From NCBI GenBank assembly GCA_905178155.1, contig CAJINV010000026.1, forward strand, positions 64,973 to 109,665: a DNA stretch of 44,693 nucleotides, in the 5' to 3' direction. This document shows positions 1-42,070 of this stretch, piece by piece (positions within the stretch are counted from its first letter, which is position 1; the number at the start of each line of letters is the position of its first letter). This stretch comes from Amoebophrya sp. A120. Taxonomy: Eukaryota; Protista; Dinoflagellata. Under the pieces are notes generated by a model. It had not been told where the DNA came from. It searched no databases and saw only the letters and a program-made list of their open reading frames with translations. The translations under genes and the position numbers were made by a program.

Positions 1-170
1 AGAATACAATTTTTGCTACGCAGAGAGGACATTTGTCATGCGGACTAGGCATCAAGATGCCCTCAGAAAATCTGTGATGCTAGGGCATGCATCACAGACA
101 TCATGGGTCATGGAAAACCTGCATGACAAGTCTCAGAATCTTCCAGACCCAGACACTTTTACATTTGATA
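1..170. mobile_element. TIR introner, family A (truncated by window edge)
   Basis: Ends CTTCCAGACCCAGACACTTTTACATTTGATA. Confidence 0.85.
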
Positions 171-3100
171 AAGCGACGCTTTATGCAGTTTCTCGTCCTC
201 GGCGAGTTCCTGTAGCCGCTGCGTTAAGAGCATCCGCTCGATGGAAGATCCGTATTTGTCCGTGTTGTTTGTGGAATTTGTCGCGTTTTTTTGCTGCAGC
301 AAGTACTGGTGCTTGACCGCTTCCAAGTCTTTATCTTGAATCAGCTTTTGAAACGGCGGATCGGATTCCAAGGCTTGCAGGAATCGCTTCTATCATTTGT
401 AAAAACGTCCCCACACCAGAGTCAAGATCGGAAGTCTGCTAGACAAATCAGCCAGCGTTGGTTGTTTGGCATGACAAGTTTGTATTCGTAGTGTAGTTAT
501 CCTGTTTGGGTAGTTCAGCAGCATCACAGATCTAGTATATCATTGCTGATCATAGCATCACAAATTCCAAAACACAACTAGAAAATGCTTCTCTTGGCGC
601 TCCGCATGACAAACTTTTCTGGCATGCAGATTTGCATGACAACTCTGGGGTGGACACGTTTTTACTCAGAATAGCTTCTTTTCGTTGCCCATCCGCATCA
701 GGTAGAGTCTGCTGTCCTCCAGAATCTGCAACACCCGACCGCTCTTCCGACTGATTTTGTGAAATTGCAGTTCCAAATTCAGCGAGTCGTAGTTGAAACT
801 GGTGGAGAACAGCTCCTGCAAGGCGATTTTCGAAAGCGACAGGGAAAGCTCCTGCGCGTCGTAGCTCTTGGCGCAGGACTGTAAGCGTCGGATAAGATAT
901 GCAGAAAAGAAACTGCGTAAGCGTGTACTTTCTAATGAAGGAATAGCATGACAAGTTTGCCTTGCATGACACAGAAAACCTGTCATGCGTAGCTAGTACG
1001 TGAAAACACGTATGAAGCCAGCCTCTGACGCATGTCCAGCATGACAGGTCTAAGTGTCTTGCATCGTCTGGGCCTGCAACACAAAGTTACACTTACACAG
1101 TGTTTTTCTTGGATATCAAAACGTCAGAAACACCGCGTAAGCCGTTTCCTTGAAAAGATTTGTTGTTCAACAGCGCGGAGATCCTGCCCGCCTTTGACAG
1201 CTGTTTCTTCACGTGCCCGATCGTATTCGCGAGAACGGTGGGGGATTCGTGGCTGTTCATGCCTCCAGTTTTCGACTTCGCGTACAAAGCCGCTGTTTGA
1301 TATTTTGATACCACGAAATCGAGGTCCGCCAAAGCGTGCAGTTTGATCAACGTCGGGTAAACCCGTTCGTAGGACAGCTCACCAGAGGTGATCGACACCG
1401 TTTTCAGCAGAGCGACCTTGCAGGTGTCCAGCAAATCGTAAAACCGATCAAATTTCTTTTCGTGCACGGCAAGTAAGCATTTCCCGATCTGCACTTGGAA
1501 GTCCTCATGTTGGGAAGACAAGCTCCCCGGGCCGTCGTAGTGATACACCAAGTTGTATGAATTGCGAAAATGTCTGGGTCTGGATGATTGCCAGATTTGT
1601 CTTGCAGGTTTTTCATGACCCATGAGGTCTGGTATGTAGGACATAGCATGACAGATTCTGCGAGACCTTTCTAATCCCTATCCTGCATAAGAAACTGCCT
1701 CTCGATTAGGTCAAAAGTGCAGAAGTTTTGGCAATCATGCAACACAGTTTTTTGCCTGATTCAGATTTAGCATGACAAGTTGCAATCATCCAGACCCAGA
1801 CATATTTGCATTTGATAGGTTCTGGTGTAAGTTTTCATAAAAGCTGTTTCGCTCCCGTGGGTTCTGTATCAAATGCAAAAGTGTCTGGGTCTGGAAGAGT
1901 GCAGACTTGTCATGCATATTTTCCATGCCCCAAGAGGTCAGGAATGCAGGATCTAGCATGACAGATTCTGCGGCGTCTCTATCATGCCTATCCTGCATGA
2001 GAGACTCCCGCTCATGTTGGTCAACAAAAAAGGACAATTTTTGGTGATCACGCAACACAGATTTTTCTGTGATCCACAGGACGCATCACAAATTCCATCC
2101 TCCCAGACCCAGACACTTTTGCAATCCATATTCTGATTGCCAGAACAATTCGGTGCTGACGCAGACGCGGCTAAACTGGTGGAGGAGAAATTTGCAAACC
2201 CGCCTGGGTTGACCGAACTCGCCGTGCCGAACGCCCCCGGCTTGTTAAAATTCGTTAAAGATTCTTGCTGCACCCGAATGACCTGCTGGCGGATTTATCA
2301 AATGTAAAAATGTCTGGGTCTGGAAGAATGCATGTTTGTCATGCTTGTCTGGCATGACTCTTAAATCTGTCACGCACGTTACCCAAAAGGTCCACTTTTC
2401 TGTGATGCAGAAACGCAGATTGTCATGCAGAAAAGGCAACACCTAGAAGCTCAGAAACTTGTCATGCTGAGCCAGCACTTGTGGCCTCATCATGAGACGC
2501 CGCCCAGCATCACAAGTTTCCAGACCCAGACATTTTTGCATTTCATAGGATCTGTTGTTGAATGATATTCGCCGCGGATTTCTTTCCACCGCCAGCATTT
2601 GGAGGTACTCCGCCGCCCGCATTGAAGATCCCTCCGATGGAGCTATTAAACGCTGGGCTTGCGTAATTCGAAGTGATGTAGCTGCCCGCCACATTGAACA
2701 GCTGCGACGTGTTGCCGCCGTGGGCGAGGTATGCATTGCAAAAGCATCGCACTACGTATAGATTGCATTACAAATTTGCTCAGCGTGAGAACTGGAATTT
2801 GTCATGCTTTTTTACCTTAAGCACAAGATTTGTCATGCGTAATTACAATTAGTACGAGTGCGATACTTTTGCACAGGATACAAGACCCATCCCAGAATTC
2901 CGGCTGTTATACTCGTGGGTCGTGATGGCCCCGAATTGGACCGATTTCTTCACCGGCTGTCCTGTGGAGGGCTGGTTTAACATATTTCCGCCGTCGGAAA
3001 GGTTCGGCTTCAAGGCACTGGAGCTACTACCCCCGCTGGTCGTTGTCCCGTTGTGTAACATCATCCCTGGCGGCTTGATGTTCGAAGCAAGCTCCTTCTG

Positions 3101-6100
3101 CTTCTCTTTCTGTTGCGCCGCCTGCTCCTTCGCCAAGGTGGGGAGGAAAGCGCTTGTTCCTGTGTATCAAAATGAAAAATCCCCCCTCCCCATATCAAAA
3201 GAAAATCAGAGAAAATTTCTGATGCTGGATTTGCGTACACAAATGAGGTCTGTCTTGCGGTAAAGAATTCTGGGCAGATTCTTAGGCTGTTTAGGTGCGC
3301 AAGGGTCTAGCTGTTTAGCATGGGAAACGCCTGCCCCGTAGGCCAAGCAGCATGACAAACCGCATCCATAATGCGGCGCATCCCTCACCGCTTGCCTTTT
3401 TGCAAGACAAAAATGATTTGTGATCACAAATCTGCATCACAAATTTCGGAACGGATGCCTTCTCAATACGGGGAGGGGGGATTTTTCTTCACGATACTGT
3501 GGCGTAACTCTTCTGTGCGGAATTGCCCGCGGACCTGATATGTTGGGAGGAAAGTAAAGGTGCGTTAATCTTCACACGCCTAATTCATCCTCTTCGCATT
3601 GATGCAAGTACCCAAGTCAGTGTGGCCCCAAGTAGAGTGTCCGCTGTGGACGACAAAATAATCACATGGAAATGCCTCAGCGACTCTGCCAGCGGTGGGG
3701 GTGAGTCCCACACTCTCGGCGTGGTTCAAGGACGCACAAACAACAAAAAGTATCCAAGCCGTCGTGGTATGGAGATCATTTCTCTCCTGGCCTGGGCGAC
3801 AACTCTCCGCGCCAGCTGTCCAAAAAATGACTGCGGGAGCTCATGCGAGACGCCAAAATGCGCAAGGCATGTCGCCCGAAACAGGGGCGGACGTCTGTGA
3901 CTTAGGCAACGGGAAATATTTCAAAACAAGAGAACGCCCAAAAGTTGAGCAGTTGGCGCTTTTTGATAAACGCGACCCAACGGCGCACCCTTGTGGACCG
4001 CTGGGCGACCGCTCATTGTCGCAGCGGTCACCAAGAGACGCGCCGTCCCCCCGTGCTTCCGTTTTCTTGCAACTCCAGAACTTTTCTGCACACAAACCCA
4101 AAACGAAACCCCCAAACAACCAAAAATATACAAACCTGCATGGCACGGAGGTCATTTCTCTGTTGGCCTGGGCGACAAGGCTCCGCGCCAGCTGTCCAAA
4201 AAATGACTGCGGGAGCTCATGCGAGACGCCAAAATGCGCAAGGCATGTCGCCCGAAACAGGCGCGGACGTCTGTGACTTAGGCAACGGGAAATATTTCAA
4301 AACAAGAGAACGCCCAAAAGTTGAGCAGTTGGCGCTTTTTGATAAACGCGACGGGACGGCGCACCCTTGTGGACCGCTGGGCGACCGCTCATTGTCGCAG
4401 CGGTCACCAAGAGACGCGCCGTCCCGCCGTGATTCCGTTTTCTTGCAGCTTCAGAGCTTGTCTGCACAAAAGCCCAAAACGAAAATCCCAAACAACAAAA
4501 AATATACAAAGCTGCATGGTATGGAGATCATTTCTCTGCTGGCCTGGGCGACAAGGCTCCGCGCCAGCTGTCCAAAAAATGACCGCGGGAGCTCAAGTGG
4601 TAGACCAAACTGCGCAAGTCATGTCGCCCGAAACAGGGGCCAAGCCCTGTGATTTAGGCAACGGGCAACATTTCAAAACAAGAGAACGCCCAGAAGTTGG
4701 GCAGTTGGCGCTTTTTGATAAACGCGACGGGACGGCGCATCCTTGTGAACCGCTGGGCGAGCGCTCATTGTCGCGGCGGTCACCAAGAGACGTGCCGTCC
4801 CGTCGTGATTCCGTTTTCTTGCAACTTCAGAGCTTTTCTGCACACAAGCCCAAAACGAAACCCCCAAACAACCAAAAGTATACAAACCTGCATGGTACGG
4901 AGATCATTTCTCTGCTGGCCTGGGCGACAAGGCTCCGCGCCAGCTGTCCAAAAAATGATCGCTGGCGGAACTGCCAGCAGCCAAAAGTGATCAAAAAGTT
5001 GCCGCAAAGCACGAGGGCGGTCTGCGTTTTCAAAGATGCAGCAAGATCTGCGATGCCAAAAAAATGCGAATGTCCCGAATTTCCCTCCTGTTGTCAATCA
5101 CGAGCGAACGGCTTCCGCTAGCGGACCGCACACAGCGGAAGCCGCACGAAACATAGAAACATGAAAATCCCACAAATAGAACAAGAAGTTGAATACCTAG
5201 ACAAACTCGCATGCGCCTTGAGTTCCTTTCTGATGTTTGGCGGCACAAAGGCCCGACTGTGTTCGTTCATCATGTCATCCGAGTCCGAGTTTTCATCGTC
5301 TTCTTCATCTATCTTCCTAAATTTTGTCCCAGATAGGTTCGTCGCCAGTTTGTTGCCCCCCGCCCCGCGCAGCCCCGACCCCTGCAGGTGCCTTGGCGAA
5401 TGATCCTGCTGAAAGGATTGTTGCCTCCGGAGCTCCCGGGGCAGTTTAGAGTTCGTGTCTGCCTCGCGTCTCTCTGTGTCGCCGAGAATCGCCTGTTGCC
5501 GCATCAGGACTCGTCTGTGCTTCTTCGTGCTGTTCGGGATATGCGCGATATCGTGCGAAAAAAGTGCTTCACTAGAGGAATTTATATTTATTCAGCGTGA
5601 CTTTCGCATCACTCTACTTCACAAGCTTGCTCTACATGAAACAGAATGGAATTTGCCACGCGAGGTTCCACCTACGGGAATAAAACAACGGCGTAGCAAT
5701 CCACTGTCTTACGTCATGTGTAGCGAGACAAACACTTCTGGTTCTGCGATGTAACATTTTCCACCTCCGCACCTACAAGTTTACAGTGAAGCCAAATTAT
5801 TTCTTTGCGATATTGCAATGCGCTCGATTCTTGCTGTCCTGCCGAAAGCGCCGACCCGGGGGATTGCTTCGAGTAGATCCCAGACTCGTGTTTCTGCAGG
5901 GTGGAAAAATTGATGGCATTCTGCAGATTTTTGGAGCTTTTTTCGTTAGAGTCGAACACCTTCTCCGTAGCTGCTTGCTTCCCACCGTCCGATGGTGTGT
6001 ATCACATGCAATTGTGTCTGGGTGTGGAAGGATGCCAGACTTGTAATGCTGAAAGCTCATGCTCCCAAACTTTGTATTGCGTGTTGCAGAATGCTAGTGC

Positions 6101-9100
6101 TAGTTTTGTGTCATGCAAAAACGCAGTTTCTCATGCGTATTTCACCACACAGGACCGTTCAAAAATTTGTCATGCTTGGATGCGTACTCTAGTCATTTTG
6201 TCACTCATGTATTAGCATGACAAGTTTCAACATCCAGACCACACCCAGACATATTTGCAGTTGATAGTGTGTCGGGGATCACGATGACCTCGTTGTCCGG
6301 GTTTGGCCGCTTCAATGAAGTCTATCTTGTGCAAAAACGTCCCCACCCCAGAGTTGTCATGCTAAACAAAATAATTTGTAATGCGCTTGCGCAGCTCCAT
6401 GAGCGGCATTTCCAATCGTGTTTTGGAATTTGTAATGCTATAAACAGGATGACAAAGTGGCTGTCTCATGCAGCTTCCCTGGCTAACCAGCACTACACTG
6501 CAGAGGCAAACTTGTCATGCGCAACTCCCACAACTTGGAGATTTGTCTAGCAGATTCCCCATCTTGATTATGGGGCGGGGACGTTTTTACTCAGGATAAA
6601 GTCGAGGAATTTGTCATGCCCTGCTGCATCTGCGGCTCCTGATTACCAGGACTATGGGGCTCTCAAACGTTACATTTTCAACTGTTACATGATTTGTCGT
6701 GCAAAACTACCATGAGCCACCAGACAATCAAGCCACCTCGCATGACAAATCCCCGAAGGGCTAAACAGCCCCTAAATCTGTGCCGGATTTGTGATGCGAG
6801 AGTTGCAAGCTTGCCCCTTTCACTATTGCGGTTCTTGCAGCACAACTTCATGTAACAGTTGAGAATGTAACGTTTGGGAACGCCATAAGGACCACCGGCG
6901 CCTTGTAGTGGTAGCACCGATGGGGCGTAGGGCGACGCGACCGCACCTGGAGGCATGTTGGTTGTTGTGTTTCTACCGAACAAGTTTGGCAGAACAGCCG
7001 CACCGGACCTCGTCATCTGCTGTTGCTGCGCATTCGTTCCAGCATTCATTCCAAAAACCGACTGCTGCGCGAAGGTGGACGGTTGCTGCATACTTTGCAA
7101 CCCGCCCCCGAACGCCTGCGCTCCGTGATTACCTACCCCTGGAACTGCAACTGGCGCGCCACCAGGACGCTGCATCAGCGACTGCGCTTGAAGATGTTGT
7201 TGCCCAGGAAATTGAAAGCTGTTTCCAGTTTGATAGTGCCCGAAACCTACGGCGGATCTCCGTCTGTGGTTGTAGTCGGCTGGGTTGTTGCTCAGCGCAG
7301 GCTGTATTAACCCTTGATTGCCGGCACTAGTGCCCAGCATGCCAGGCACCATCCCCGGAAGAGGATGGCCATTTTGTCCCATCACCAAGCGATTGACAAC
7401 GGGTTGGTGGAGGTTTATTTGCTGTTGATGCCCGACAAACCCAGCACCGAATTGCGCGGGTTGCGGATGTTGCACCAGCATTCCGGGCTGCAGTGGTTGC
7501 TGCGGCATGTTATTTCCGAGGCTGTAGGCTGGTTGGTGGGCGACGCCAACGTTGTACGAAGAAGATGATCCACCCGGGTGGTTGTGCGCAAGAAACTGCT
7601 GATGATGTCCACCGCCGCCCTTGACTCCAGCATAAATCACCCCGCCCTTCTGCTGCTGCATCTGCATCTGCTGGCTGTTGGTTAAGACCATCGTCCCTCC
7701 GGGGTACTGACTTCCTCCGGCTAAGCTTATCCGGCTGGCTATCAAAATGAAAACTTCCCCCGCCCCATACAGAAACTGGAAATTTGTGATGCTGATTTGC
7801 GACCACAAGTCGCGTTGTCATGGTAGAAGGGACGAAAAGGCGCGGACTGTAGTGACAGGAGGCAACTGGAAGTGGGAAACAACATGACAAATTGCCTGGA
7901 GACAAGGCCGCAACCTCTGCGTCTCTTGCCCTTCTAGCAATACAAGCAGATGCGTGCACGCAAATCCAGCATCACAAAGTTCCTGTCCGATATGGGCAGG
8001 GATGTTTTTCCTCACAATAATGGCGTTCAGCGAGGTGTTTTGTTTCAGCTCCTCGTCGCGTTCCTCTTCCAGATTCAGCCCGTGCTTCTTCATCAGCGTG
8101 TTGTCCACGAAGAGGGAGATATCAAGAGAAAAAAGCGCCACAGTTACACACTCTGATGGGACGAGACAAGCAAGACAGACAACCTCTGTGGTCATGCAGG
8201 AAATTCTTGTTGCCAACCCCATTGGATTCGTGTTTTCCCGTACAGGTTTTCTTTGCCATGTCGAGCTGCAACTTTGTGGTGCAGAAACTCCTCCAACGAA
8301 TGATGTGTATACTGTAACACTTTTTTCCTGTGATAGGAGATCTCCTTCGTCAAAGGGTTGTTTGCGTTGTCCGGAATGGAGTTGGTGTCGTCCGGGATGT
8401 ATCAAATGCAAAAATGTCTGGGTCTGGAAGGATGGAACTTGTCATGCTGTCTTTGGATTCGAAAAAAATCTGTATTGCGTAAGCAGCGAGAGGAGTCCAG
8501 TTTCTGCTACGCGGAGGGGGTATTCCTCAAGCGGTAGACGCATCGGAAAGCCCTCACAAAATCGGTGAAGATGCTGGGTCATGCATTACAGGCGTCATGA
8601 GTCATGCAAAATGTGCATGACAATTCTTCCAATCTTCCAGACCCAGACACTTTTGCATTTGGTAGGATGTCTTTGATCTCCCGGTCGAAGCTGTACCACG
8701 GCCAGCCTTGGTGCGGATCCGTGTCGCGCTTGGAAATGAGATCGCCCAGAGTGTCCCAGCTGGACAGCCGCCAAGCCGCCTCGGCTGCGTATTTGGACAA
8801 AAACATCGCCGCCGCGTCGGCGGACGTGAACCCGTTTTGGTCGATATAGTTTTCCGGGTGGAAGTTCTGGAAACTGGTGTTCTCCGCTTCTGTGGTCTGT
8901 TCCGTGGTAGAGTGGTGCTATTGAGCGGAAACGCGCGCTGCCCTGCTTATTTCCATAGGTACTGACTCGTCTCTCAAAAGCAACTACAGGCGGCCCTTCT
9001 TGCGCCAGGTCAGAGAGATCGAGGGCACAGAGAGCTAGGCAAGAGGGACAGGGGCGCCAGGCGCTTCCCTCCCGCTGCAGCTTCGACAAAAACCCAAGGG

Positions 9101-33100: not shown

Positions 33101-36100
33101 ATCTTTTGCAATGCAAATTTTTGCTATTCACGATCGGAAATCTGTGATGCTGATACGATGCAAGAGGGCGCATGTTTCATTTGGAAAGGTTTGCAATACA
33201 AATGCTTTCAAGTTTAGGGGTGGGGGCATTTTTCATTGTAATAGGCTGCAGAACTGCTTCAGTATCCTCGTGAACTCTTCTGTGTGCGTGGAAACTAGAT
33301 TATTCCTCGCGATAATACTCCCGGTCGTCGCTTTCTGGACTGTATGCTGCGCCGGGACGAAGGGAAATTCATTCGCCGGGACTTTCGTGAAAAGGCATTT
33401 CTGGTACTGGGTGAGGAGGCTTGACGCTGTTGCACTTGAGCTTGTCATGCCAGATTGCAAGCACGCCATGTTGCCTCCTGCACAGTCTATCCCTGGCTCC
33501 GTTTCTTCTTCCGGTTCTTGGAATTCCAAATCGTCGTCTGCTCCAGCAACGGTGTCAGCGACAAAGTCTTCCGCAAACCTATCTTCCACATATTCCAAGC
33601 AACTCCTTCGAATAGAATGCGACTTCGTGTGCTGGTGATGCTGTGCGAAGGCTTTACTAGCGGAGGCTCGCCCTGCTGGTGTGCTACCTTTCGCAGCTGT
33701 CGCGGCACAGTGCTTTCTGCTCCCACCAGCACTTCTGACGCTTGTCCACAGAGTCGGGAACGCGGGTAAGTTTTCCATGATATCTACCGCCCTCCCCGCG
33801 GTGCCGAATTTCAACAACCGAAGTTGGATTTGTTGCAAAACGGTGGAAAATTTTTCCAACAATTGTGTCCGGTTAAACACAAACCGGAAAATTCGGTACT
33901 GCTTCTTCAACTTTTCCTCGTCTTCTTCAAATACCTCGATCGCGGAATTGCCGTCCCGAAAGTGGTTCTTGATCAACCTCGTGATCTCCGAGAAAAGCAA
34001 GTCATCCGCCACAGAAATCTCGGTTTGCTTCAGAACTTTGTAATCCGCCAAGCCATCGTCGTCGTCGTCGGACGAGGCGGTGGAGTTTTTATGCGACTTG
34101 GACTTGCTGTCCTGCTTTTGCTCAACGACAGTTGCACCTTGATCGCCGACTTGGTTCTGGTTTTCTTTGCTGCTTTTCCGCGTTGTGGAGGCTCCTGCTC
34201 CTGCGGGCTGCTTCTTCTTGATGTTCATCGTCGTCCCTCCACTAGAAGTTGCGCCGGCGAGCAAAGGGAGCTGCTGGTGGAGTGCGCCGTCTGCTGCCAT
34301 CTCCACGTGGTCTTCGCTGTCTCCCCCAGCACCTGCGTCGTCGCCGAACCCTCGGTCGAAGTACTCTTCGTCTGAGTTGTAAAAGTCAGCCGCTCCGCAA
34401 CTTCTATCGTCAAAGATATCCTCTATCCCCAGCGTCAGGTCATCGGCCTTCAACTCTTTGTGATTTTCCAAGCAGGCGGAAACGCAGTCCCAACACGCGA
34501 TTACGATGTCCGCGACGAGAGGCTTTCCGGTGGCGTCTGCCTCGTTCAGAAACGGCTTCACCACTTCGATCTTCTGTTTTAAAGAAACTGCCGGGAGGAT
34601 GGCGAGCAATTGCAACAACTCGTGAAGCAACGTCGTGAAAACCGTTAGCTGCTTGTTCGCTATGGTCGCGTAATTATCAACTGCAAAAGTATCGTACTCG
34701 TATGAATGCAAGACAAATTCCCTCAGCATGAGAAATAAAACTTGTAATGCGGATTTACCTTGAGAAAAAGATTTGCGATGCATGATTGCAATTACTACGA
34801 GTACGATACTTCTGCACAGGATAGTAATGTTCGGCGTTTGAAGATGTTCTTGTCACTCCGGTTTGATGTTGTAGCTCCATCCCGTCTCTGTGCGCGGCAC
34901 TGATCATGGGCACGAGGAAGTTCAGCAGAAACCGGTGGAAGTATCCTGTGGAAAAGTATCGCACTCGTACTTCTAATCGCAGTCATGCAAGACAAGTTTC
35001 TTGCTCAAGCTAAATCAAAATCAGCATAAGAAATTCCATTTGTCATGCTGAGCGAATTTGTATTGCAATACTACGAGTACGATACTTTATTTGCAGTGCA
35101 TAGGATTTCAGTCGGGTCGATGTGAATGTAGTGCAACGGATGAAGCGACGCGGGCAGGGGATCTCCTGCTATCAAGTGTAAAAATGTCTGGGTCTGGAAG
35201 AGCACAACTTTGTCATGCACATTTTCCATGATCCGTGACGTCTGTGATGTATGCCATAGTATCACAGATTTCTTGAGCGCTTATCTATGCGCATCCAGCA
35301 TGACAAATGCCCTCTCCGCGTAGCCAAATTTGAATCCTCTTGCTGGTCATGCAATACAAGTTCGTTTTAGCATCCAAATGCAGCATCACAAGTTTGGCTC
35401 TTCCAGACCCAGACATTTTTACATTTGATACCTGCCATCGTCACACGGTCTTCGACGCTTTGATGATGTTCCCCAAATAAATACGCTCCGCTGCCGGCTG
35501 CAAAATCGTTCCCCCCTGTCCTTTATGCATTGCAAAAGTGGCGTACTAGTAGTAATGGCATGGCAAATTGCCTCAGCGTGGGATGGCAAATGGAATTTGT
35601 CATGCTATTTTACCTTGGGATGGAGATTTGTCATGCATGTTTGCAATTACTACGAGCACGATACTTTTGCACAGGATATCCTTATGAGTTGTAGAATTTT
35701 GCAGATGAAAAAGAAGCTCTCCTCCGTAACCTGCTCTGACACAACATCTCGCGCAAAACGTCGCTGCCCCTCACCTTCCTGGTCTTGAACAAATTCGCGC
35801 TCGGCCAGCTTGAACGTCGCAAAACAGGAACTCACCAGAATTTTCAGCTGCCGTTCCACGGAGCAGCGAAACATATCCACGATCGCATACGGGTCGTAGG
35901 GCTTCACAGGAGGGACAGGGAGTGCAACGCCTGGCCCCAGAAATAAATGCTGATCTACTTCGTTGTGCATGATGTTGATATCAACTGGAGCCCCGATTTT
36001 GATTTTGTTCGCGAACAAGTCCTCCACATAGCCGGTATTTGCATCTGCGCTGAAGAACTGCTCCAGCCTCCGCGGGTACGTGATCGCAATCCGCATGTCT

Positions 36101-39100
36101 TCCTCGAATGTTTCCCTTTCCACGCAAATTTTCTGCTTTTCGAACAGCTTGTAGCCCGCACTCGTTTTGTCGGGGAGTAAGTTCGTTCCGGGATTTGTCG
36201 AGAACTTTGCCTTTTCCCGCAACACTTTTTCAAAGTGCGACGCGAGAAAGGGGTCGAGCTTTTCTTCGTAGAAAGTCGCGAGGGAAGGGGTCGGGATCAA
36301 AAGTCTGCTATCAAATGTAAAAATGTCTGGGTCTGGAAGAGTGCTACACTTCTCATGCATATTTTGCATGACTCAGGATGTCTGTAATGCATGATCTAGC
36401 ATCACAAATTTTGTGACGGCTTCCTGATGCCTCTACCGCATGAGAAATGCCATTTCGCCGTGGCAAAAACTGGACCCCTTTTGCTGTCCATGCAATACAG
36501 ATTTTTGTATTATCCAAATGCAGCATCACAAGCTGCATTCTTCCAGACCCAGACATTTTTGCATTTGATATCTGCTCTCGCGGTCGAGGTGGAGCGAGCC
36601 ACTACCTGTTCCAAAGCGGCTCTGGTCGTAGTCGTGGTGATATGCATTGCAAAAATATCGTACTCGTATAAATGCATTACAAATTTCCCCAGCATGAGAA
36701 ATGAAATTTGTCATGCGGATTTACCGCAAGAAAAAAATTTGTAATGCATGACTGCGATTACTACGAGTACGATACTTTTGCACAGGATAGGTGATCGTGG
36801 TCGCCGATGTGATGTTGTCCGCCAGCAAGATGATGAACCCCACCTACAGTATCATTACACCCTCCGCAGAAAATCGAAAATGCCCTCGGCAGCAGCCGGT
36901 ACAGAAAGCGTACTAACGAGAGTGCGAAGAGACCGATGTGGCCTGGCCCGAGCAGCCGCGAGTCGAGGTTGAACTGTAGAGATTTGTCGAACATTCTCAG
37001 TTTCAATGCGTCATCTCGGCTTTTATCGGCGGAGGGAAGGATAGCAGCCAACCGGTTTTCCAAACCGTGAACAGTGTTTGATGCTTGCTCGTCCCCCGTC
37101 GCTTCTAGTACAGACGCAAAAATTTCTGCCTTGTCAGACCCCGGCTCCGGCTCCTTTTTTCCTAGATTTTCTGCCGCTAGTGCAATCAGCGTTTCTTCCA
37201 CAAGTGGCCGGATATTGGTGCAGGAGGAATTCCTGCTCCCGCGATTTTTAAACGCAGCTGTCGTCGTGCGACCTGGAGTCGACGTCCTTACTGCTGCGAC
37301 TTGCGCTTGCCCCATCACGTGGAAGTTATTTTGCAGGAGAATTTTCTGCTCCCTTCTCAGCAAAAATTCCCAGTATTCCAGCGCCGCAGCAGAGAGACCC
37401 TCGTCGCAGGACAAGCTCGCTTTTAGGAGGTTTGGTAGGTTTTTTGGCAATAGAAAGATCTTCGAGTTGATCATGTGCTGGTCATCTATATCGAGTTGTG
37501 TTGCGGTATTCATCGTCATCCCTTGGTGTTGAAAACCTTTCATCTCGCGGAGAAGGTTTGCGACGCCGGATAAAGACTTTTCAACCTGCTCGCCAACATC
37601 CCCACCTCCACCGGGAATCAGCTTGTAGAAAGACTTCAGTGCGTTTCTCGTTTCAATCTTCTCATCGTGGATAATATTTACATCGAGAAACGTTTTCCAA
37701 CAGATCTGCTGGGTCAGGGAAACAACTGCGAGCGCCTCCTTTTTCTTTTGAAAGGTAATCAGCTTGTGCTGCATGTTGTCGGTTGATGCAGCCGCGCCGC
37801 CAGGACGACGAGTCGTTGTTGTTCCGAGCGTTTGCCACAGCGACCCGTCACAGGCCGCGTACAACCCGTGCGAAGGCGTGGCGCAATTGGTCAGAAAATC
37901 GTCCAAGCTGTGGAGAATGGTGGATAAATTCAGCTTATCCCCAACGTGGATCCTTTTCTTCTTCACCTGAGCGAGTCTGTGGGTGATCAGCTTTTTCAGG
38001 ATCTTGAACAGGCTGAAAAGCTGGTGCTCGGGCGGCCGGGAGGCGGACAGGTGAGGACCACTGGACGTCAAGAGCTGGCTTGATGTTCTTGTTTCTCTGT
38101 CCACGCTAGACTTATCCTGGTCGTGCTGCCCAACGACCGCAGAAGTACTAGCAGGTCCTACGGAGTCACTAAAATCCAACATCTTGCAGCGCTGAATCTC
38201 CGCAATTTTGCACAGGTATCCCATCTGGTCGTTCAAGAATTCATCTAAAAACTCACTTTCAGAAAAACCGTTGTTCGCCCCGGTATTGTCTTTGTCGTCA
38301 GGGAAAACGAAGAAAACCGCGTTCACCGCGTGAAACAGCGCTTCAATCAGCGAGAATGTCATGCCTTCTGTCGCGGGACCTCTTGGGTAGAGGTGGAGCT
38401 TTTTAGTACCGCCAGCATCAAGAACTCCCGTAGTACCTCTGTGGAGGCATTTCCTGTGCTGCTTCTGCACCTTCTTCTTTTCCTTCCCGAAAAGAGCCAG
38501 AACGCAGTGCAATACTTCAAGCAAAATGTCCGTGGCTGAAGTTTTTCGCATCACCGATTTGTTCTTCTTGGCGTAGAGGTTCTCGTCGATTCGGATCAGT
38601 TCGGAGTTACTTTGAGCATTGGTGCCAGGCTTTCGAACCAAATCAGCAACCACTGCAGTGTTGGTCGAAGTGCCGGGGAAGAGACTCGCGGAGAAAGAAG
38701 AACTGGCCTGCTCGGATTTCTTGGTCTTCTCCCGATGAACTTGTTCCGCATTTGAAAAATCCAGACCAACGCGCTCGATCTGCAATTTTCCCCCAAACGG
38801 GAGTTTATCCGATTTGAATTCGCGGCAGATCATGGTGATTAGGTCGGAGATGCGGATCATGGCGTTTTCCAAATTCGTCTTGAAAAGCGAGATCTTCTGG
38901 TCGACTTTACCCTGCCCGCCCTGCCCCCCGCCCTTCCGGCTGGTCGGGAGGTTCGCGAAGAGGTGGGTGAAGCTGATGGCTTTGCCCAGGCCTCGTTTTT
39001 CCAGAAGCTCCTGCTGCTTCGCAGTATTGGATGCACTAGACGAATTGTTGCTGGACGCACTACTAGTACTCGCGATCAGGCTGTTGACGATAAACGGCTC

Positions 39101-42070
39101 TTGGAGAAGCTTGGCAGATCGGGTGAAGAAGAGCATGGATTCGAGACCACTAGAACTACCACAACCGTGGCCGTTGGAGTCTTCGTCGGTGAAGATATTG
39201 TCGTCTTTGGCTTCTCTATTCATCTTTACGTCGTTGAACTTTGTGAACTCCAGCTCGGAGTTTATGCCGAAGTCGTGGTCACCAGCAAAATTCCGATACC
39301 CTGAGTAAAAACGTCCCCACGCCAAAGTTGTAATGCAGATTTGCAAAGACAGCAAGACTTGTAATGCGCATCCCCATGAGAGGCATTTCCAATCGGGTTT
39401 TGGAATTTGTGATGCTGTGAACAGGATGAGCAGACGAATCTGTGATGCGGCTGCACTTGCTAGCCTGCACTAAACTGCAGAGTGCAACTTGTCATGCGTG
39501 ACTCACAAAACTCCTAGGTTTGTGTTGCAAAATCCCCATCCTGACTCTGGTGTGGGTACGTTTTTACTCAGGATATCCGACCGGATTTCTTCTTGTTCCC
39601 CTGAAAAATATGCTCGGGGACTTTCAGTTTTGGTGGGTGCTTTTTCTGCAGCAAGTCAATGTTACCGTGGCGTACGTAAAGAATTCGCAACTTGGAAATC
39701 GCCTCGACGCAGTCTATGCATTGCAAATATGTCTGGGTCTGGAAGCGCGGAAGTTTGTCATGCTCGGCTAGCATGACTCTCAAATGTGTCTTGCACGTTA
39801 CTTACCCCAAAGCTCCAACTTTCTGTCATGCAAAAAGGCAGCTTGTCATGCTGAATAGACAACACGTAGCAAATCATAAACTTGTCATGCTGAGCCGTCA
39901 CTTGTGGCATCCTCATGATTCGCCACTCAGCATCACAAATCTCCAGACTCAGACATTTTTGCAATCCATACAGTCCTCCAGCAGGCAATACACCAGATTC
40001 GACGTGTTGAAGCTGGTCGCCGTGCTGGAATCGTCCGCCAAATTGTGTTCGATATGAACTGCAAAAGTATCGAACTCGTAGTAATTGCAGTCATGCATTT
40101 ACAAATCTTTTCTCTTGAAGTAGATCCGCATTACAAATCTTATTTCTCACGCTGAAGAAATTTGTAATGCATTTATACGAATACGATGCTTTTGCAGTTC
40201 ATATTCGATGTGAAACAACAAATTTACCAGGACCTGCACGACCAATTCCGGTCGGTACTGCTGGGAAACCGGTAGAACTGCTTCCGCGATGTGGGCCGAA
40301 GCGTTGGCAATGGGCGGCTGCAGTATCTCGTGCCGCAAGTAGAAATTGTCTTCCTCGGCGGGGAGACTCTGCTGGTAGAACAACCTGACGGAAATGTGGA
40401 AGCGTTGCGTTTTTGATTTTTTCGATTAGAAGAGTAATTCGCGACTTAGTTCTGAAAAGAAACTTATGGTTAGAACCCGACCTGACTCTGATGCTTTTTA
40501 TATCAACATGCTTTTTTCAAAAAATGTTTATTCCATAAAATGCTTTTCATCTTATTTCAACGGTCGAGCTATATTTTTCTAATTTTCACTTTCCGCTCGG
40601 GGAAGGTGAATAAAATGATTCAAAAAATGCTTCAATGCATGAGGGCTGCAGCAGATGCAGGCTTGAACGCTGTAGCCGTCACGCACAGATACAATATCGT
40701 GCGAATCATACCCTCGCGATTTGAGATTTTAAAAATCAAAGACCATACCGTGGAACGCTACATACCCTCGCGATTCCACTTTTCGTATTTTTCGCGATGA
40801 AAATTTTTAAGTACTATATAAGAAAACTTCATACCTTCCATACCCCGGCAGCGCTTTCAAAATGCAGTAGGCCATGAAGGCGGGGAGGTTCAAGCTCGTG
40901 AATACTTCTTTGCCCTGTTCGAGAAAGTCTTTCATCAAACACAAGCACTTCGCCGCATTATGGTGTTTGACTTCCACTTCCAGCTGTGTTGCGGTACTTG
41001 CAGCGTTATCGCATGTCCTGTTTTCCTCCTGTGCAGCTCCAAAACCCGCACCACCTCCCACGACCGGTTGTTGCGGCGGCGCCTTGTAGAAGGGTGCGTA
41101 TTCAAAGGCGTAGCGGAAGAGAACGTTTTTCACGATGATTTTTTTCAAACTGCTATCCTGAGCAAAAACGTCCCACCCCAGAGTCAGGATGGGGATTTTG
41201 CAACACAAAGCTAGGAGTTTTGGGAGTCACGCATGACAAATTGCGCTCCGCAGTGTAGTGCAGGTTAGCAAGTGCAGCCGCGTCACAGATTCATCTGCTC
41301 ATCCTGTTCACAGCATCACAAATTCCAATACACGATTGGAAATGGCTCTCATGCGGATGCGCATTACAAGTCTCCCTGTCTTTGCAAATCTGCATTACAA
41401 CTCTGGTGTGGGGACTTTTTTACTCAGGATAGCTGCTTCGAATCGCACTCGTGGAATTCAGATTGTTATCCGCATTTATCGCGTTGTAGTCCACGAGATC
41501 CCCCCCGTTCATCTTCTCAATGGCGGACACCAATTTCTCCGCGTCCAGGTTCAACGGGAGCTTGTAGCAAGAGTCTGGAATCGACTCGTCAAACAGCTCC
41601 GTGATCTGCGGCCAGTTTTCCGGAACCTTCCACCCCGTCGTGCTACAGGTGGGCGGCTTCGCGATGCCCGGAGCGGTTGCGCTGGCGATATAGCCAGTTG
41701 TAGCACCTCCTGGTGGTGGTGGCTTCATCGTGTTCTTAACATTGTTCGCAGCTGCTGTAGGTGCTGACAATGAAGATGTTGCGCCAAGAAGCTGTGGGGT
41801 CGACGAGCCCTGCTCGGTAGTCTGGAGATTTTTAGTTTTAGCACCACCACGACCCGCACTGCTGCTGCTACTACTAGTACCGCTAGTACCACTACCCGCA
41901 GCCTGCTTCGACGCCTTCCTTTTCGATCCAGATGGTTGCGCCGGTTGAGCTTTTTTTCCTGTTGCTTCTTTAGAAACATTGCGACTGGACTTTCCGGAAG
42001 CCGTTCCGCCGCGAGCGCCTGGCGGGGGGTCGGGCCCGTCGCTCCGCCCGCTCCCGGAGTTGGAAGTCAT
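1..42070 (-). CDS. ATR: Giant multi-exon ATR/Mec1/Rad3-like PIKK kinase gene (HEAT region and part of FAT domain; 3' end and kinase domain lie beyond position 1)
   Basis: ATR-like motifs in the expected order: LCASVFGLVGAMD, YHYAAQQILKVL, FSEDVKKQLLPFLTSSY, IFIGCYPVIKTHNLALARYLAPFLLRIIL, LVQAAERIGAHARALLYLE, AAEAAWRLSSWDTL, FQVQIGKCLL..FYDLL..SYERVYPTLIKLHALADL (compare human ATR as recalled: EAAWKLSQWDLV, WSVRLGQLLL..FYDSL..SYQRGYEYIVRLHMLCELE). Exons in transcript order, each including flanking 5-bp repeat copies: 41432-42070, 40835-41153, 40204-40384, 39971-40052, 39576-39714, 36790-39296, 36571-36640, 35679-36308, 35431-35523, 35103-35169, 34824-34941, 33244-34674, 32797-32930, 31374-31696, 30513-31210, 29822-29881, 29531-29569, 29054-29212, 28318-28897, 27967-28102, 27579-27697, 27083-27408, 26709-26758, 26411-26446, 25631-26128, 25204-25415, 24925-25007, 24157-24684, 23813-23859, 23365-23474, 23061-23131, 22301-22806, 18838-19402, 18439-18622, 17718-17830, 17394-17441, 16508-17154, ~16148-16233, 13820-14008, 13536-13600, 13108-13153, 12828-12898, 12325-12562, ~11278-12030, 8665-8917, 8336-8399, 8020-8119, 6888-7739, 6599-6652, 6267-6322, 5813-5999, 5197-5548, 3497-3534, 2881-3164, 2548-2729, 2131-2295, 1818-1866, 1116-1555, 674-897, 171-390. 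Confidence 0.85.
391..673. mobile_element. TIR introner, family B
   Basis: TATCATTTGTAAAAACGTCCCCAC...; direct repeat (DR) GCTTC/GCTTC. Confidence 0.9.
898..1115. mobile_element. TIR introner, family C
   Basis: TATGCAGAAAAGAAACTG...CAGTGTTTTTCTTGGATA; DR TAAGA/TCAAA; frame restored. Confidence 0.85.
1116..1555 (-). CDS. ATR: FAT-domain exon (FQVQIGKCLL...SYERVYPTLIKLHALADL)
   Basis: Core of ORF 1093..1644; strongest ATR-like motif in the window. Confidence 0.9.
1556..1817. mobile_element. TIR introner, family A
   Basis: TGTCTGGGTCTGGA TIRs; DR AGTTG/GGTTC; frame restored. Confidence 0.88.
1867..2130. mobile_element. TIR introner, family A
   Basis: DR TTCTG/TTCTG. Confidence 0.9.
2296..2547. 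mobile_element. TIR introner, family A
   Basis: DR GGATT/GGATC; interior similar to 22807-23060 and 39715-39970. Confidence 0.9.
2730..2880. mobile_element. TIR introner, family D
   Basis: TATGCATTGCAAAAGCATCG...CGATACTTTTGCACAGGATA; DR CGAGG/CAAGA. Confidence 0.88.
3165..3496. mobile_element. TIR introner, family E
   Basis: TATCAAAATGAAAAATCCCCCCTCCC...; DR CTGTG/CTGTG; frame restored. Confidence 0.9.
3535..5196 (-). other. Canonical GT-AG intron containing the 376-bp repeat
   Basis: CTAG|GTATTC...TATCAG|GTCC; in-frame join ...LSRSAGNSAQ. Confidence 0.75.
3735..4958. repeat. Tandem repeat, 376-bp unit, about 3.2 copies
   Basis: Equivalent ORF starts at 3945, 4321 and 4697. Confidence 0.92.
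5549..5812. mobile_element. TIR introner, family C-like, with degenerate DR
   Basis: TATCGTGCGAAAAAAG...TTTCTTTGCGATA; DR CGCGA/TTGCA (1 of 5) but 5-bp removal restores frame. Confidence 0.75.
6000..6266. mobile_element. TIR introner, family A
   Basis: DR GTGTG/GTGTG. Confidence 0.9.
6323..6598. mobile_element. TIR introner, family B
   Basis: DR AAGTC/AAGTC. Confidence 0.9.
6653..6887. mobile_element. TIR introner, family F
   Basis: TATGGGGCTCTCAAACGTTACATTTTCAACTGTTACATGA with inverted counterpart; DR AGGAC/AGGAC. Confidence 0.9.
6888..7739 (-). CDS. ATR: Q/G/P/N-rich low-complexity exon inserted within the FAT domain
   Basis: Core of ORF 6678..7808; in-frame joins translated through 6599-6652, 6267-6322, 5813-5999 and 5197-5548. 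Confidence 0.8.
7740..8019. mobile_element. TIR introner, family E
   Basis: DR CTGGC/ATGGC. Confidence 0.88.
8120..8335. mobile_element. TIR introner, family C-like
   Basis: TATCAAGAGAAAAAAG...CTTTTTTCCTGTGATA; DR GGAGA/GGAGA. Confidence 0.88.
8400..8664. mobile_element. TIR introner, family A (right end GTA)
   Basis: DR GGATG/GGATG. Confidence 0.9.
8665..8917 (-). CDS. ATR: FAT-domain exon (AAEAAWRLSSWDTL)
   Basis: Frame of ORF 8579..8806, open back to CAATAG| at 8918. Confidence 0.85.
9084..9378. repeat. 120-bp repeat built of CGACAAAAACC subunits, ending in a perfect 27-bp-arm hairpin
   Basis: Units near 9084, 9204 and 9324; arms 9323-9349 and 9352-9378. Confidence 0.88.
9381..10890. 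repeat. Tandem repeat, 128-bp unit, about 12 copies
   Basis: AAAATCGCCGGGCTCCGA at 9391, 9519, 9647...; the unit holds the palindrome CGATTCTCAGCGCTGAGAATCG. Confidence 0.95.
11278..12030 (-). CDS. ATR: FAT-domain exon (ELQEKWQDALHLY...GVVRCLLASRHY)
   Basis: ORF 11230..12030; donor position approximate. Confidence 0.8.
12031..12324. mobile_element. TIR introner, family F
   Basis: DR GTCAA/GTCAA. Confidence 0.88.
12563..12827. mobile_element. TIR introner, family A
   Basis: DR GCCGG/GCCGC. Confidence 0.9.
12899..13107. mobile_element. TIR introner, family C
   Basis: DR CTTCT/CTTCT. Confidence 0.9.
13154..13535. mobile_element. TIR introner, family A, with nested 110-bp insertion
   Basis: DR AGGCC/AGGCC; insert 13199-13308 flanked by CTTCTTG repeats. 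Confidence 0.9.
13601..13819. mobile_element. TIR introner, family G (left end TGT)
   Basis: TGTGAGAGTGCAC...GTGCACTCTCATA; DR CGCCC/CGCCC. Confidence 0.88.
13820..14008 (-). CDS. ATR: Exon at the start of the FAT domain (LVQAAERIGAHARALLYLE)
   Basis: Hand translation, frame not shown in the ORF track; resembles the ATR LAxASFRSKAYTRAVMHFE segment. Confidence 0.85.
14009..16147 (-). other. Probable canonical intron containing the 84-bp satellite
   Basis: Acceptor TAACAAG|GTTG follows an in-frame stop; donor uncertain; extra exons in 15050-16150 not excluded. Confidence 0.45.
14069..15041. repeat. Tandem repeat, 84-bp unit, about 11.5 copies
   Basis: ACTTCCTGAAGCGC at 14081, 14165, 14249...15005; 13-bp stem TTTTCCAGATCGG/CCGATCTGGAAAA. 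Confidence 0.95.
16234..16507. mobile_element. TIR introner, family F
   Basis: TATGACCTGCTCA...TGAGCAAGGCATA; DR TTCGC/TTCGC. Confidence 0.88.
16508..17154 (-). CDS. ATR: Exon with IFIGCYPVIKTHNLALARYLAPFLLRIIL
   Basis: Frame of ORF 16432..17004 is open to element 17155-17393. Confidence 0.85.
17155..17393. mobile_element. TIR introner, divergent C-like
   Basis: Weak TIR; DR CCGAA/CCGAA; frame restored (KFGNDKS). Confidence 0.8.
17442..17717. mobile_element. TIR introner, family A
   Basis: DR CGGAG/CGGAG. Confidence 0.9.
17831..18438. mobile_element. TIR introner, family D, with nested ~450-bp insertion
   Basis: DR AATCG/AATCG; family D sequence interrupted at about 17876-18322. Confidence 0.88.
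18623..18837. mobile_element. TIR introner, divergent C-like
   Basis: TATGCAAGGATAATTTC...GAAATTTTCTCTTGGATA; DR GTCGC/GCCGT; frame restored. Confidence 0.78.
18838..19402 (-). CDS. ATR: Exon with YHYAAQQILKVL (ATR AYALQELL-like)
   Basis: Core of ORF 18774..19493; acceptor ACATAG|CGG inferred. Confidence 0.78.
19403..22300 (-). other. Canonical GT-AG intron containing the 149-bp satellite
   Basis: GCTA|GTGCCA...ACATAG|CGG; phases match; alternative sites possible. Confidence 0.55.
19632..22180. repeat. Tandem repeat, 149-bp unit, about 17 near-identical copies
   Basis: Identical ORFs recur every 149 bp (19877, 20026, 20175...). Confidence 0.97.
22301..22806 (-). CDS. ATR: Exon with LCASVFGLVGAMD (ATR CLGELGAIDP-like)
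   Basis: Frame of ORF 22227..22583 is open back to element 22807-23060. Confidence 0.8.
22807..23060. mobile_element. TIR introner, family A
   Basis: DR TCGTG/TCGTG. Confidence 0.9.
23132..23364. mobile_element. TIR introner, family A (left end CAT)
   Basis: DR TTTCG/TTTCG. Confidence 0.88.
23475..23812. mobile_element. TIR introner, family B
   Basis: DR GCGGG/GCGGG. Confidence 0.9.
23860..24156. mobile_element. TIR introner, family B (diverged)
   Basis: DR CGTAA/CGTAA. Confidence 0.88.
24157..24684 (-). CDS. ATR: Exon of the ATR-like gene
   Basis: Core of ORF 24149..24790; I translated in-frame joins through 23813-23859, 23365-23474, 23061-23131 and 22301-22806. Confidence 0.82.
24685..24924. 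mobile_element. TIR introner, family G
   Basis: TATGAGAGTGCA...TGCACTTTCATA; DR CTTTG/CTTCA; frame restored. Confidence 0.85.
25008..25203. mobile_element. TIR introner, family D-like, with internal ~39-bp tandem duplication
   Basis: DR CGGCT/CGGCT; ATGAAAGCCGCTTGCACAAGAAGACATACAGTTTGTCAT twice. Confidence 0.88.
25416..25630. mobile_element. TIR introner, family C
   Basis: DR TTGCA/TTGCA; close relative of 898-1115. Confidence 0.9.
25631..26128 (-). CDS. ATR: Exon of the ATR-like gene (LLEENFLYILDIFE, UME-region-like)
   Basis: Core of ORF 25466..26182; domain label is inference. Confidence 0.78.
26129..26410. mobile_element. TIR introner, family B
   Basis: DR AAAAG/AAAAG. Confidence 0.9.
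26447..26708. mobile_element. TIR introner, family A
   Basis: DR GGTCG/GGTCG. Confidence 0.9.
26759..27082. mobile_element. TIR introner, family E
   Basis: DR TGGCC/TGGCC; opposite orientation to 3165-3496. Confidence 0.9.
27083..27408 (-). CDS. ATR: Exon of the ATR-like gene (helical, FLPFILYELI...AAFQYL)
   Basis: Core of ORF 26967..27404. Confidence 0.8.
27409..27578. mobile_element. TIR introner, family D
   Basis: DR TCTTG/TCTTC. Confidence 0.86.
27698..27966. mobile_element. TIR introner, family A
   Basis: DR CGAGC/CGAAC. Confidence 0.9.
28103..28317. mobile_element. TIR introner, family C (left end TGT)
   Basis: DR GTTGT/GTTGT. Confidence 0.87.
28318..28897 (-). CDS. ATR: Exon of the ATR-like gene
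   Basis: Core of ORF 28278..28904. Confidence 0.8.
28898..29053. mobile_element. TIR introner, family D
   Basis: DR AAGCA/AAGTA. Confidence 0.87.
29213..29530. mobile_element. TIR introner, family E
   Basis: DR ATGAA/TTGAA. Confidence 0.88.
29570..29821. mobile_element. TIR introner, family A
   Basis: DR CCATG/CCATG. Confidence 0.9.
29946..30305. repeat. Degenerate 21-bp GGTTCC(G/T)AACT repeat organised as a 192-bp duplication
   Basis: CCGATGGTTCCTAACTAAGAT near 29946 and 30138. Confidence 0.82.
30324..30434. repeat. Two abutting perfect palindromes (34-bp and 21-bp arms)
   Basis: 30324-30357/30359-30392 and 30392-30412/30414-30434. Confidence 0.92.
30513..31210 (-). CDS. ATR: Exon of the ATR-like gene
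   Basis: In frame with ORF 31264..31692 after removing element 31211-31373 plus 5 bp; includes ORF 30412..31068; donor GGAG|GTCTC inferred from phase. Confidence 0.7.
31211..31373. mobile_element. TIR introner, family D
   Basis: DR AAAAA/AAAAA; frame restored. Confidence 0.88.
31697..32796. mobile_element. TIR introner, family B, with nested ~820-bp GC-rich insertion
   Basis: TATCCTATTTGAAAACGTCCCCAC...GTGGGGACATTTTTACTCAGGATA; DR CAAAC/CAAAC. Confidence 0.88.
32931..33243. mobile_element. TIR introner, family H (single copy here)
   Basis: TATTACAGTGAAAAGTGCCCCC...GGGGGCATTTTTCATTGTAATA; DR GGCTG/GGCTG. Confidence 0.9.
33244..34674 (-). CDS. ATR: Large exon of the ATR-like gene
   Basis: Core of ORF 33233..34783 between TIR elements. 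Confidence 0.85.
34675..34823. mobile_element. TIR introner, family D
   Basis: DR GTAAT/GTAAT. Confidence 0.9.
34942..35102. mobile_element. TIR introner, family D (opposite orientation to neighbour)
   Basis: DR GGAAG/GGATT; frame restored. Confidence 0.87.
35170..35430. mobile_element. TIR introner, family A
   Basis: DR CCTGC/CCTGC. Confidence 0.9.
35524..35678. mobile_element. TIR introner, family D
   Basis: DR TCCTT/TCCTT. Confidence 0.9.
35679..36308 (-). CDS. ATR: Exon of the ATR-like gene
   Basis: Core of ORF 35650..36369 between TIR elements. Confidence 0.8.
36309..36570. mobile_element. TIR introner, family A
   Basis: DR TCTGC/TCTGC. Confidence 0.9.
36641..36789. mobile_element. 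TIR introner, family D
   Basis: DR GGTGA/GGTGA. Confidence 0.9.
36790..39296 (-). CDS. ATR: Largest exon (about 835 codons) of the ATR-like gene
   Basis: Core of ORF 36761..39355, bounded by two TIR elements. Confidence 0.85.
39297..39575. mobile_element. TIR introner, family B (left end TAC)
   Basis: DR TCCGA/TCCGA; reverse-complement relative of 41154-41431. Confidence 0.9.
39715..39970. mobile_element. TIR introner, family A
   Basis: DR CAGTC/CAGTC. Confidence 0.9.
40053..40203. mobile_element. TIR introner, family D
   Basis: TATGAACTGCAAAAG...CTTTTGCAGTTCATA; DR TTCGA/TTCGA. Confidence 0.9.
40385..40834 (-). other. Canonical GT-AG intron, AT-rich
   Basis: GGAAG|GTATGA...CGTCAG|GTTG; phases match. 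Confidence 0.8.
41154..41431. mobile_element. TIR introner, family B
   Basis: DR ACTGC/GCTGC. Confidence 0.9.
41432..42070 (-). CDS. ATR: First coding exon (S/G/K-rich N-terminus MTSNSGSG...)
   Basis: ORF 41420..42070; ends at element 41154-41431. Confidence 0.75.

Follow-up and report, generated by a model that had tools for sequence, protein, structure and literature searches.

A selected and regularly spaced motif shared across introner families of Amoebophrya sp. A120

The short introners that interrupt a large gene of Amoebophrya sp. A120 carry an internal motif, GCAT[GCT]ACA in its strict form, which is real, under selection and spatially ordered. Elements of this kind were already known; the motif, its selection and a spacing rule that crosses families appear to be new here. 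In the published account, A120 contains about 29,850 repeated introns, and neither a transposase nor U1 snRNA was found; its introner elements end in TAT followed by seven variable nucleotides and AAA, are flanked by direct repeats and have non-canonical boundaries, and their removal at the RNA level was reported (Farhat et al. 2021, PMC7789003). How such introns spread and are spliced where no transposase or U1 has been found is the question addressed here. The main and supplement text of that paper, figures aside, yielded no internal motif when searched, and neither the motif nor its spacing turned up in the literature passages covered (figures and some supplements aside); GCATGACA occurs in one paper as a primer. 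A selected motif with fixed spacing across unrelated families suggests one shared trans-acting protein.

The host gene and its elements

The window, that is, the whole stretch of 44,693 nucleotides that was analysed (contig CAJINV010000026.1), probably holds one giant PIKK-family kinase gene on the minus strand as the host of the elements (Table 1). Among 15 open reading frames of the window, a FAT domain within 1096-1677 (E = 4.8e-7) was the sole Pfam match above the cut-off, and the A25 homologue of the A120 protein has a PI3/PI4-kinase domain (PF00454); the PIKK reading rests on these two domains. A window exon matches a protein labelled Amoebophrya sp. A120 at 93%, with 81% of the query covered. 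P0001, the protein annotated in A120, skips the elements and spans only 390 amino acids of the putative PIKK gene.

Fifty-five short elements interrupt this gene. By eye, 53 were delimited (14,114 bp), one of which was extended afterwards; one added element and one decayed copy were found separately. When each element is removed together with 5 nt, the minus-strand open frames reach 2184 amino acids and 52 of the 53 junctions fall in open frames of at least 600 nt, compared with 32 and 35 junctions in the controls in which 3 or 4 nt were removed instead. Removing the old decayed copy at 5549-5812 with 5 nt likewise lengthens an open frame from 544 to 653 amino acids. These restored frames point to removal of the window elements at the RNA level. 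The element at 15234-15556, whose sites are all degenerate, is the only one whose removal joins no long frame, and it probably lies within a canonical intron. Long tandem arrays occupy 3737-4958, 9381-10895, 14081-15046, 19634-22188 and 43976-44693, with units of 376, 128, 84, 149 and 176 nt, respectively; the four of them that stand between coding blocks probably sit in canonical introns. The strict motif was absent from these arrays and from the sequence beyond 41400 in the window search.

The elements have TAT-N7-AAA ends, an inner inverted repeat specific to the family (inner TIR) and a 5-bp target duplication (TSD), and most are 140-350 nt long. In the wider set of 315 copies, 281 have TAT..ATA termini and 240 an exact 5-bp duplication. 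For 52 window elements, the duplication directly outside TAT..ATA was exact in 36, had one mismatch in 8 and was worse in 8. A GT/GC..AG register that would permit precise excision exists in only 3 of the 53. The elements thus resemble published A120 introners in their TAT-N7-AAA ends, short direct repeats, non-canonical boundaries, many families and lack of an internal open reading frame, whereas the direct repeats described there are 3-5 nt long and overlap the boundaries (PMC7789003). They also show the features of MITEs, being short, present in many copies and without coding capacity, with TIRs and a TSD of fixed length.

Clustering of 314 element copies gave 37 clusters, and terminal 13-mers are common to several families. 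Within the termini (for example, 2730-2742), the conserved parts are TAT and AAA, while positions 4-10 are neutral and often unlike between the two ends. Of the common terminal variants, a single one, TAT-GCATTGCA-AA, resembles the internal motif, from which it differs by one mismatch. The family letters in Table 1 are our own and may differ from families A-H of the sequence-only reading. Family B has strict sites on one strand only, with copies in both orientations, and the C-type element at 32931-33243 has an interior unrelated to that of the other C-type copies.

Table 1. Coordinates of the host gene, the element families and selected examples in the window
Feature	Position	Strand or orientation	Remarks
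Host coding region, long, probably single, interrupted by elements	162..42094	-	open frames after element removal
Family A, inner TIR TGTCTGGGTCTGG, about 250-265 nt	17 copies in 1..39970: 1-170 (truncated by window edge), 1556-1817, 1867-2130, 2296-2547, 6000-6266, 8400-8664, 12563-12827, 13154-13535, 17442-17717, 22807-23060, 23132-23364, 26447-26708, 27698-27966, 29570-29821, 35170-35430, 36309-36570, 39715-39970	both orientations	63 strict sites
Family B, inner TIR CGTCCCCACCCC, about 280 nt	391-673, 6323-6598, 23475-23812, 23860-24156, 26129-26410, 31697-32796, 39297-39575, 41154-41431		
C-type, C-rich inner TIR, 280-330 nt	3165-3496, 7740-8019, 26759-27082, 29213-29530, 32931-33243		
Family D, inner TIR GTATCGTACTCGTA, about 150 nt	2730-2880, 17831-18438, 25008-25203, 27409-27578, 28898-29053, 31211-31373, 34675-34823, 34942-35102, 35524-35678, 36641-36789, 40053-40203		
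Family E, about 210 nt	898-1115, 8120-8335, 12899-13107, 25416-25630, 28103-28317		
Minor family G	6653-6887, 12031-12324, 16234-16507		
Minor family H	13601-13819, 24685-24924		
Minor family I	15234-15556		no strict site
Minor family J	17155-17393, 18623-18837		J-18623 without strict site
Old decayed E-type copy	5549-5812		no strict site, one 1-mismatch site; target duplication eroded
Full-design example, family A	36309-36570		duplication TCTGC, TAT-N7-AAA ends; sites -43, -75, +91, +130, +184, +215 (sign, strand; number, position in element)
Direct-pair example, family B	39329..39367	-	31 nt apart; outer site 33 nt from end
Back-to-back inverted-pair example	73..96		16 nt apart; pair quoted in the sequence-only reading
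Foreign insert of ~820 nt in the family B element 31697-32796	31726..32542 (approximate)		at motif tail

Abundance, selection and spacing of the motif

Strict matches number 157 in the window (71 on the plus and 86 on the minus strand), 145 of them with a final A or G, and GCATGACA is the most frequent 8-mer. The sequence-only reading that the motif saturates the element families is borne out: 153 of the 157 sites lie inside the 53 elements, 50 of which have at least one, compared with 3.8 ± 1.9 expected from dinucleotide shuffles of the elements (maximum 10 in 200 shuffles); shuffling the whole window gives 4.4. Inside elements, variants with a single mismatch (A at position 4, G at 6 or G at 7) each show ~13-15-fold enrichment, and the wider consensus is about GCA(T/A)(G/C/T)A(C/G)A(A/G)(A/G)T. 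Both strings quoted by that reading near 2337 and 72 are where it placed them, and the second half of the pair at 2337 is the one-mismatch variant GCATGACT. The same reading called the motif rare in canonical introns, in the upstream region and in exons, with exceptions near 6612 and 33442. Four sites (6612, 16099, 33443 and 38357) lie in the 30.6 kb outside the elements; two of them, 16099 and 38357, were missed by that reading, and their number is that expected by chance rather than a depletion.

The association also holds in a second strain. Metagenome contigs were searched by TIR pattern and target duplication, with the motif unused, and a contig scan by TIR only gave at least 182 stretches; 181 loci were taken from these, and the 80 listed all came from assembly JACKZZ01. 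This assembly represents a distinct close strain, 3-8% different in aligned pieces of L050, and the motif was found in 260 of its 269 elements flanked by exact duplications.

The enrichment persisted when common ancestry of the families was taken into account. After the sites had been masked and 16 nt cut from the ends, 17 of the 325 pairs among 26 representatives reached z >= 4, of which 11 belonged to one group and 6 were weak (scores of 22-28 compared with nulls of 13-17), and the masked interiors of different families failed to align over any length. Such interiors appear to be unrelated or diverged past recognition, and the families may plausibly share a remote ancestor. The motif fills the whole element and is shared by at least 14 of 17 groups whose TIRs and interiors are unrelated.

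Substitution rates were obtained from tree-based parsimony counts; singleton counts saturate in large alignments. In 13 subfamilies comprising 182 copies, with locus copies chosen for exact duplications, the core changed at 0.44 of the interior rate at the tips and, on internal branches, at 0.10 of it (odds ratio 4.35, p = 1e-10). A wider set of 293 of the 315 copies, which excluded those with three or more duplication mismatches and one group of under 8 copies, gave 0.39 and 0.17; matching for trinucleotide context gave 0.41 and 0.18. Both parsimony counting and unsampled copies limit how far tips can be equated with time after insertion. Core bases are therefore far slower than their neighbours (0.10-0.17 internally, about 0.4 at the tips), and the motif thus withstands both of the tests, ancestry and divergence, that the sequence-only reading had set for its refutation. 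The central base of the motif is neutral (0.91 at tips, 1.08 internally), as is the N7 of the termini, and change in CpG columns is no faster than in the rest of the interior.

The sites are also ordered in space. Taking one representative for each of the 17 groups, the commonest arrangement was a direct pair 30-33 nt apart, present in 13 groups (null mean 2.4, maximum 8 in 5000), and inverted pairs gather at spacings of 15-17, 34-35 and 45-50 nt. The outermost sites stand 33-34 or 41-45 nt from the element end and mostly face outward; those of family D face inward. The steps of ~10 and ~31.5 nt would match one and three turns of the DNA helix. The closely spaced inverted pairs of the sequence-only reading are thus present, but they form part of the pattern only, given the prevalence of direct pairs and the one-stranded sites of family B.

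What reads the motif and to what end

Orientation with respect to the gene has little bearing on the sites. In the window they divide into 83 sense and 70 antisense, with nine elements having no sense site and eleven no antisense site, and in 63 locus elements the numbers are 84 and 116. Because the central base is neutral and the spacings are fixed, a sequence-specific protein that reads double-stranded DNA fits best and is likely, as judged from sequence; the earlier proposal of a shared binding site readable in either orientation agrees with this. A mark read in RNA is disfavoured, because a site on the transcript strand is unnecessary and the old, nearly motif-free copy still restores the frame. 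GCAUG is an RBFOX-type RNA site, and we rejected this identity for the motif, as GCATC, GCATT and GCAAT variants are common.

On balance, we find it somewhat probable that the motif is the repeated binding site of one putative double-stranded-DNA-binding protein that is needed mainly for mobilisation, most likely an integrase-type (Ginger/IS3EU-like) transposase or a host cofactor. Several copies of this protein would bind each 150-330-nt element along a fixed ladder, in which direct sites lie ~three helical turns apart and the outer-site positions (33-34 and 41-45 nt) one turn apart. The bound copies would assemble a paired-end complex, with a catalytic domain working at the TA termini at a stagger of 5 nt. 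New subfamilies would be founded by copies whose sites are intact, which we propose as the source of the strong constraint on internal branches, and RNA removal of the element with one duplication would depend mainly on the ends and less on the motif.

Several results speak for mobilisation: the concentration of sites in elements of both strains, the low core rate on internal branches, those that have descendants, compared with tips, the 5-bp duplications, the absence of a strand requirement and the 30-33-nt pairs in most groups. There is also a candidate mobiliser in the same organism. A120 introner family 38, a TIR DNA element of about 808 nt with 5 copies, is annotated as 'Ginger, 5-bp TSD, TA/TA termini' and has open reading frames with integrase-like homology (Gozashti et al. 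2025, PMC12130899); it shares the 5-bp TSD and TA/TA termini with the window elements, a likeness at the level of annotation, and subterminal repeats are not mentioned in the main text or supplement 8 of that paper.

Other facts weigh against mobilisation. No transposase was detected by Pfam among 140 of the 231 locus open reading frames, and none is reported for A120 by Farhat et al., who argue against transposases as general mobilisers (PMC7789003). The motif occurs across all families, whose inner TIRs differ; as differing inner TIRs are usually the mark of separate transposases, a host site is an equally good reading of it. Furthermore, tip rates stay at about 0.4, and the motif relaxes less than the inner TIRs do.

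IS3EU and GingerRoot have TA..TA termini, as do the window elements, and IS481EU has TNT..AYA (PMC10045372, PMC6839031); because the duplications of IS3EU and GingerRoot are 6 bp rather than 5 bp, we do not claim membership in these groups. Ginger2 has a TSD of 4-5 bp (PMC10045372), the TIRs of GingerRoot are 100-150 bp and Ginger ends in TG..CA, both unlike the window elements. No subterminal motif was found in the descriptions of IS3EU, GingerRoot, Ginger2 and IS481EU in these two papers. Closer functional precedents are the Emigrant MITE, whose subterminal repeats are bound cooperatively by the Lemi1 transposase (PMC1636448), the P element, with internal transposase-binding sites (PMC7776569), and hAT, CACTA and Sleeping Beauty, with subterminal repeats as cited in the same two papers. 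Like the present motif, such repeats are short, internal to the TIRs and present in either orientation, and they keep defined distances to the ends; their arrangement affects binding in known cases. The present motif, repeated with fixed spacing and fixed distance to the ends and under selection, follows this design. In contrast, the known repeats belong to one family each, and those of Emigrant are copies of the inner half of its TIR, whereas the present motif crosses families; the present elements, unlike known subterminal-repeat transposons, also behave as introns. Multi-site ends are also found in Mu and Tn7.

A second reading is that the protein belongs to the host or has been domesticated: bound to the motif on double-stranded DNA, it would mark the element for non-canonical splicing during transcription, so that the motif would be needed after insertion as well and its carriers would be tolerated in exons. 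We regard this as possible, if clearly short of probable. The features common to all families relax least at the tips: the relaxed share is 0.13 for TAT and 0.19 for AAA, figures biased by the copy-finding procedure, and 0.27 (CI 0.21-0.33) for the motif core, compared with 0.51 (CI 0.38-0.65) for the family TIRs. The difference between motif and TIRs is 0.24 (CI 0.12-0.40), or 0.16 (CI 0.04-0.31) under the other parsimony rule, and it is not significant within family A alone. The tips include real post-insertion time, because the two L050 insertions checked are both occupied in both strains (3-8% apart) and so predate the strain split. Copies with eroded duplications gained less change in the core (+0.005) than in the interior or TIR (+0.020 each; pooled, borderline); however, with families treated as strata this age test did not reach significance (interior minus core, 0.011; CI -0.004 to 0.026). 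The scarcity of precise GT/GC..AG registers and the reported absence of U1 snRNA from A120 searches (PMC7789003) would also suit a splicing mark, and a mark read on DNA would be orientation-blind.

Against a splicing mark, constraint is 2-4 times stronger on internal branches, and low tip rates could be explained by unsampled rounds of transposition. Frames are restored, and splicing thereby suggested, on removal of the decayed copy at 5549-5812 with its one imperfect site, of J-18623 with no strict site, and of four window copies whose site is broken by an insert or displaced. The sequence-only proposal that the motif marks sequence for removal is therefore weakened: the DNA sample gave no sign of excision, no strand is required and the decayed copy restores the frame, although the residual constraint at the tips leaves room for a role after insertion, and some such motif constraint is possible. 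No abundant excised DNA form, as programmed (IES-like) DNA elimination would produce, was detected, and the DNA contigs cross the listed element-exon junctions unbranched (one sample, rare forms dropped). The RNA runs X5-X7, which do not cover the gene, gave no exon reads at 32450-42150; in L050, X5 and X6 were deep over 5914-6546 only, with additional element-copy reads from other loci, and X7 gave none. Reads of X5-X7, tens to hundreds in number, hold unspliced element copies from single other loci (at 32690-32796, 35430, 39537-39576 and L050:2994-3025), indicating that some introners are retained in transcripts.

The two readings might be combined. We advance, as a speculation that is on the whole unlikely, that a single protein, perhaps derived from a transposase by domestication, recognises on DNA, in either orientation, a phased GCA(T/A)NA(C/G)A ladder, mobilises the tens of thousands of non-canonical introns of A120 and recruits the machinery that excises them precisely from nascent RNA, replacing the undetected U1 step. 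A two-strain comparison would separate motif action before insertion from that after it; action after insertion would make the motif an intron mark at the DNA level. In either case, it offers a DNA bait and a family-independent means of finding elements and their autonomous partners.

We think it quite improbable that the motif serves another host chromatin or DNA protein (packaging, silencing or repair) that aids element survival or accessibility with no direct part in transposition or splicing. The motif is universal, works in both strand orientations with regular spacing and is in part retained at the tips, and large foreign inserts cluster at its sites (8 of 9), suggesting breaks or access; yet it is at chance level outside elements, its position within them follows the ends, and the lineages that proliferate show the strongest constraint. 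Pairing of opposite motifs in pre-mRNA or single-stranded DNA, which would fold the intron so that its ends meet, is largely disfavoured as an explanation and has very little probability. Motif-motif pairs do occur in most predicted folds, 61 of 115 close inverted pairs match at their central base (36% expected), and with flanks counted in, G-U combinations outnumber A-C ones by 146 to 109 (p = 0.024; copies not independent). However, the central base, mismatched in the other 54 pairs, is neutral, which fits reading of the sequence rather than pairing, and pairing drops beyond the 8-mer. In the core the G-U to A-C count is only 23 to 17, and no TIR zone shows a significant excess; family B has no opposite sites, with 0 of 40 motif bases paired in predicted folds. 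Neither a single sequence common to the families nor a direct spacing of 31-33 nt would follow from pairing. Neutral inheritance from a common ancestor, or a mutational sink (for example, CpG decay to TG/CA), with no present function, has next to no probability: shared terminal 13-mers and a common spacing rule make deep ancestry plausible, but the 153 sites compared with 3.8 in shuffles, the context-matched rates, the CpG columns that are no faster and the persistence of sites between spacers diverged past recognition speak against it, and the rates and unalignable interiors rule it out as the sole explanation, ancestry plus selection being compatible with mobilisation. Among the first 30 matches listed for 262 copies, no homologous flanks were shared between separate insertions.

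Foreign DNA at motif sites

The ~820-nt insert in a family B element (Table 1) has a homologue at L027:98-1201, 84% identical over 845 nt, which also lies at a motif tail in a different introner family; its sequence is free of the motif. It is possibly a second mobile element that targets the motif site. Large foreign inserts in or beside sites also occur in the elements at 13154-13535, 17831-18438 and 23475-23812 and at L042:3307-3763, L038:632-1465 and L079:571-1051. At the junction inside the motif, the L042 and L038 inserts have a (GAT/ATC)n run that is suggestive of a retroelement tail. In viral contigs, the family A TIR had no matches, and matches to the ladder pattern (L182:3020-3125 and L183:3020-3100) proved to be a GATGT/GATGC pentamer repeat between genes, unrelated DNA that fits the pattern by chance.

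For counting, 30 gap rows were used, from which 5 neighbour fusions, 17 gaps of 15-38 nt and 2 tandem duplications were set aside. The 6 foreign inserts of at least 59 nt, together with those of L027 and L038, lie within -1 to +12 of a site, L042:4473 being ambiguous; inserts are thus at sites in 8 of 9 cases compared with a background of 0.37 (p about 0.002, for a post hoc choice made by eye). This clustering may reflect breaks or access at bound sites. Both of the tandem duplications among the gap rows begin at a site.
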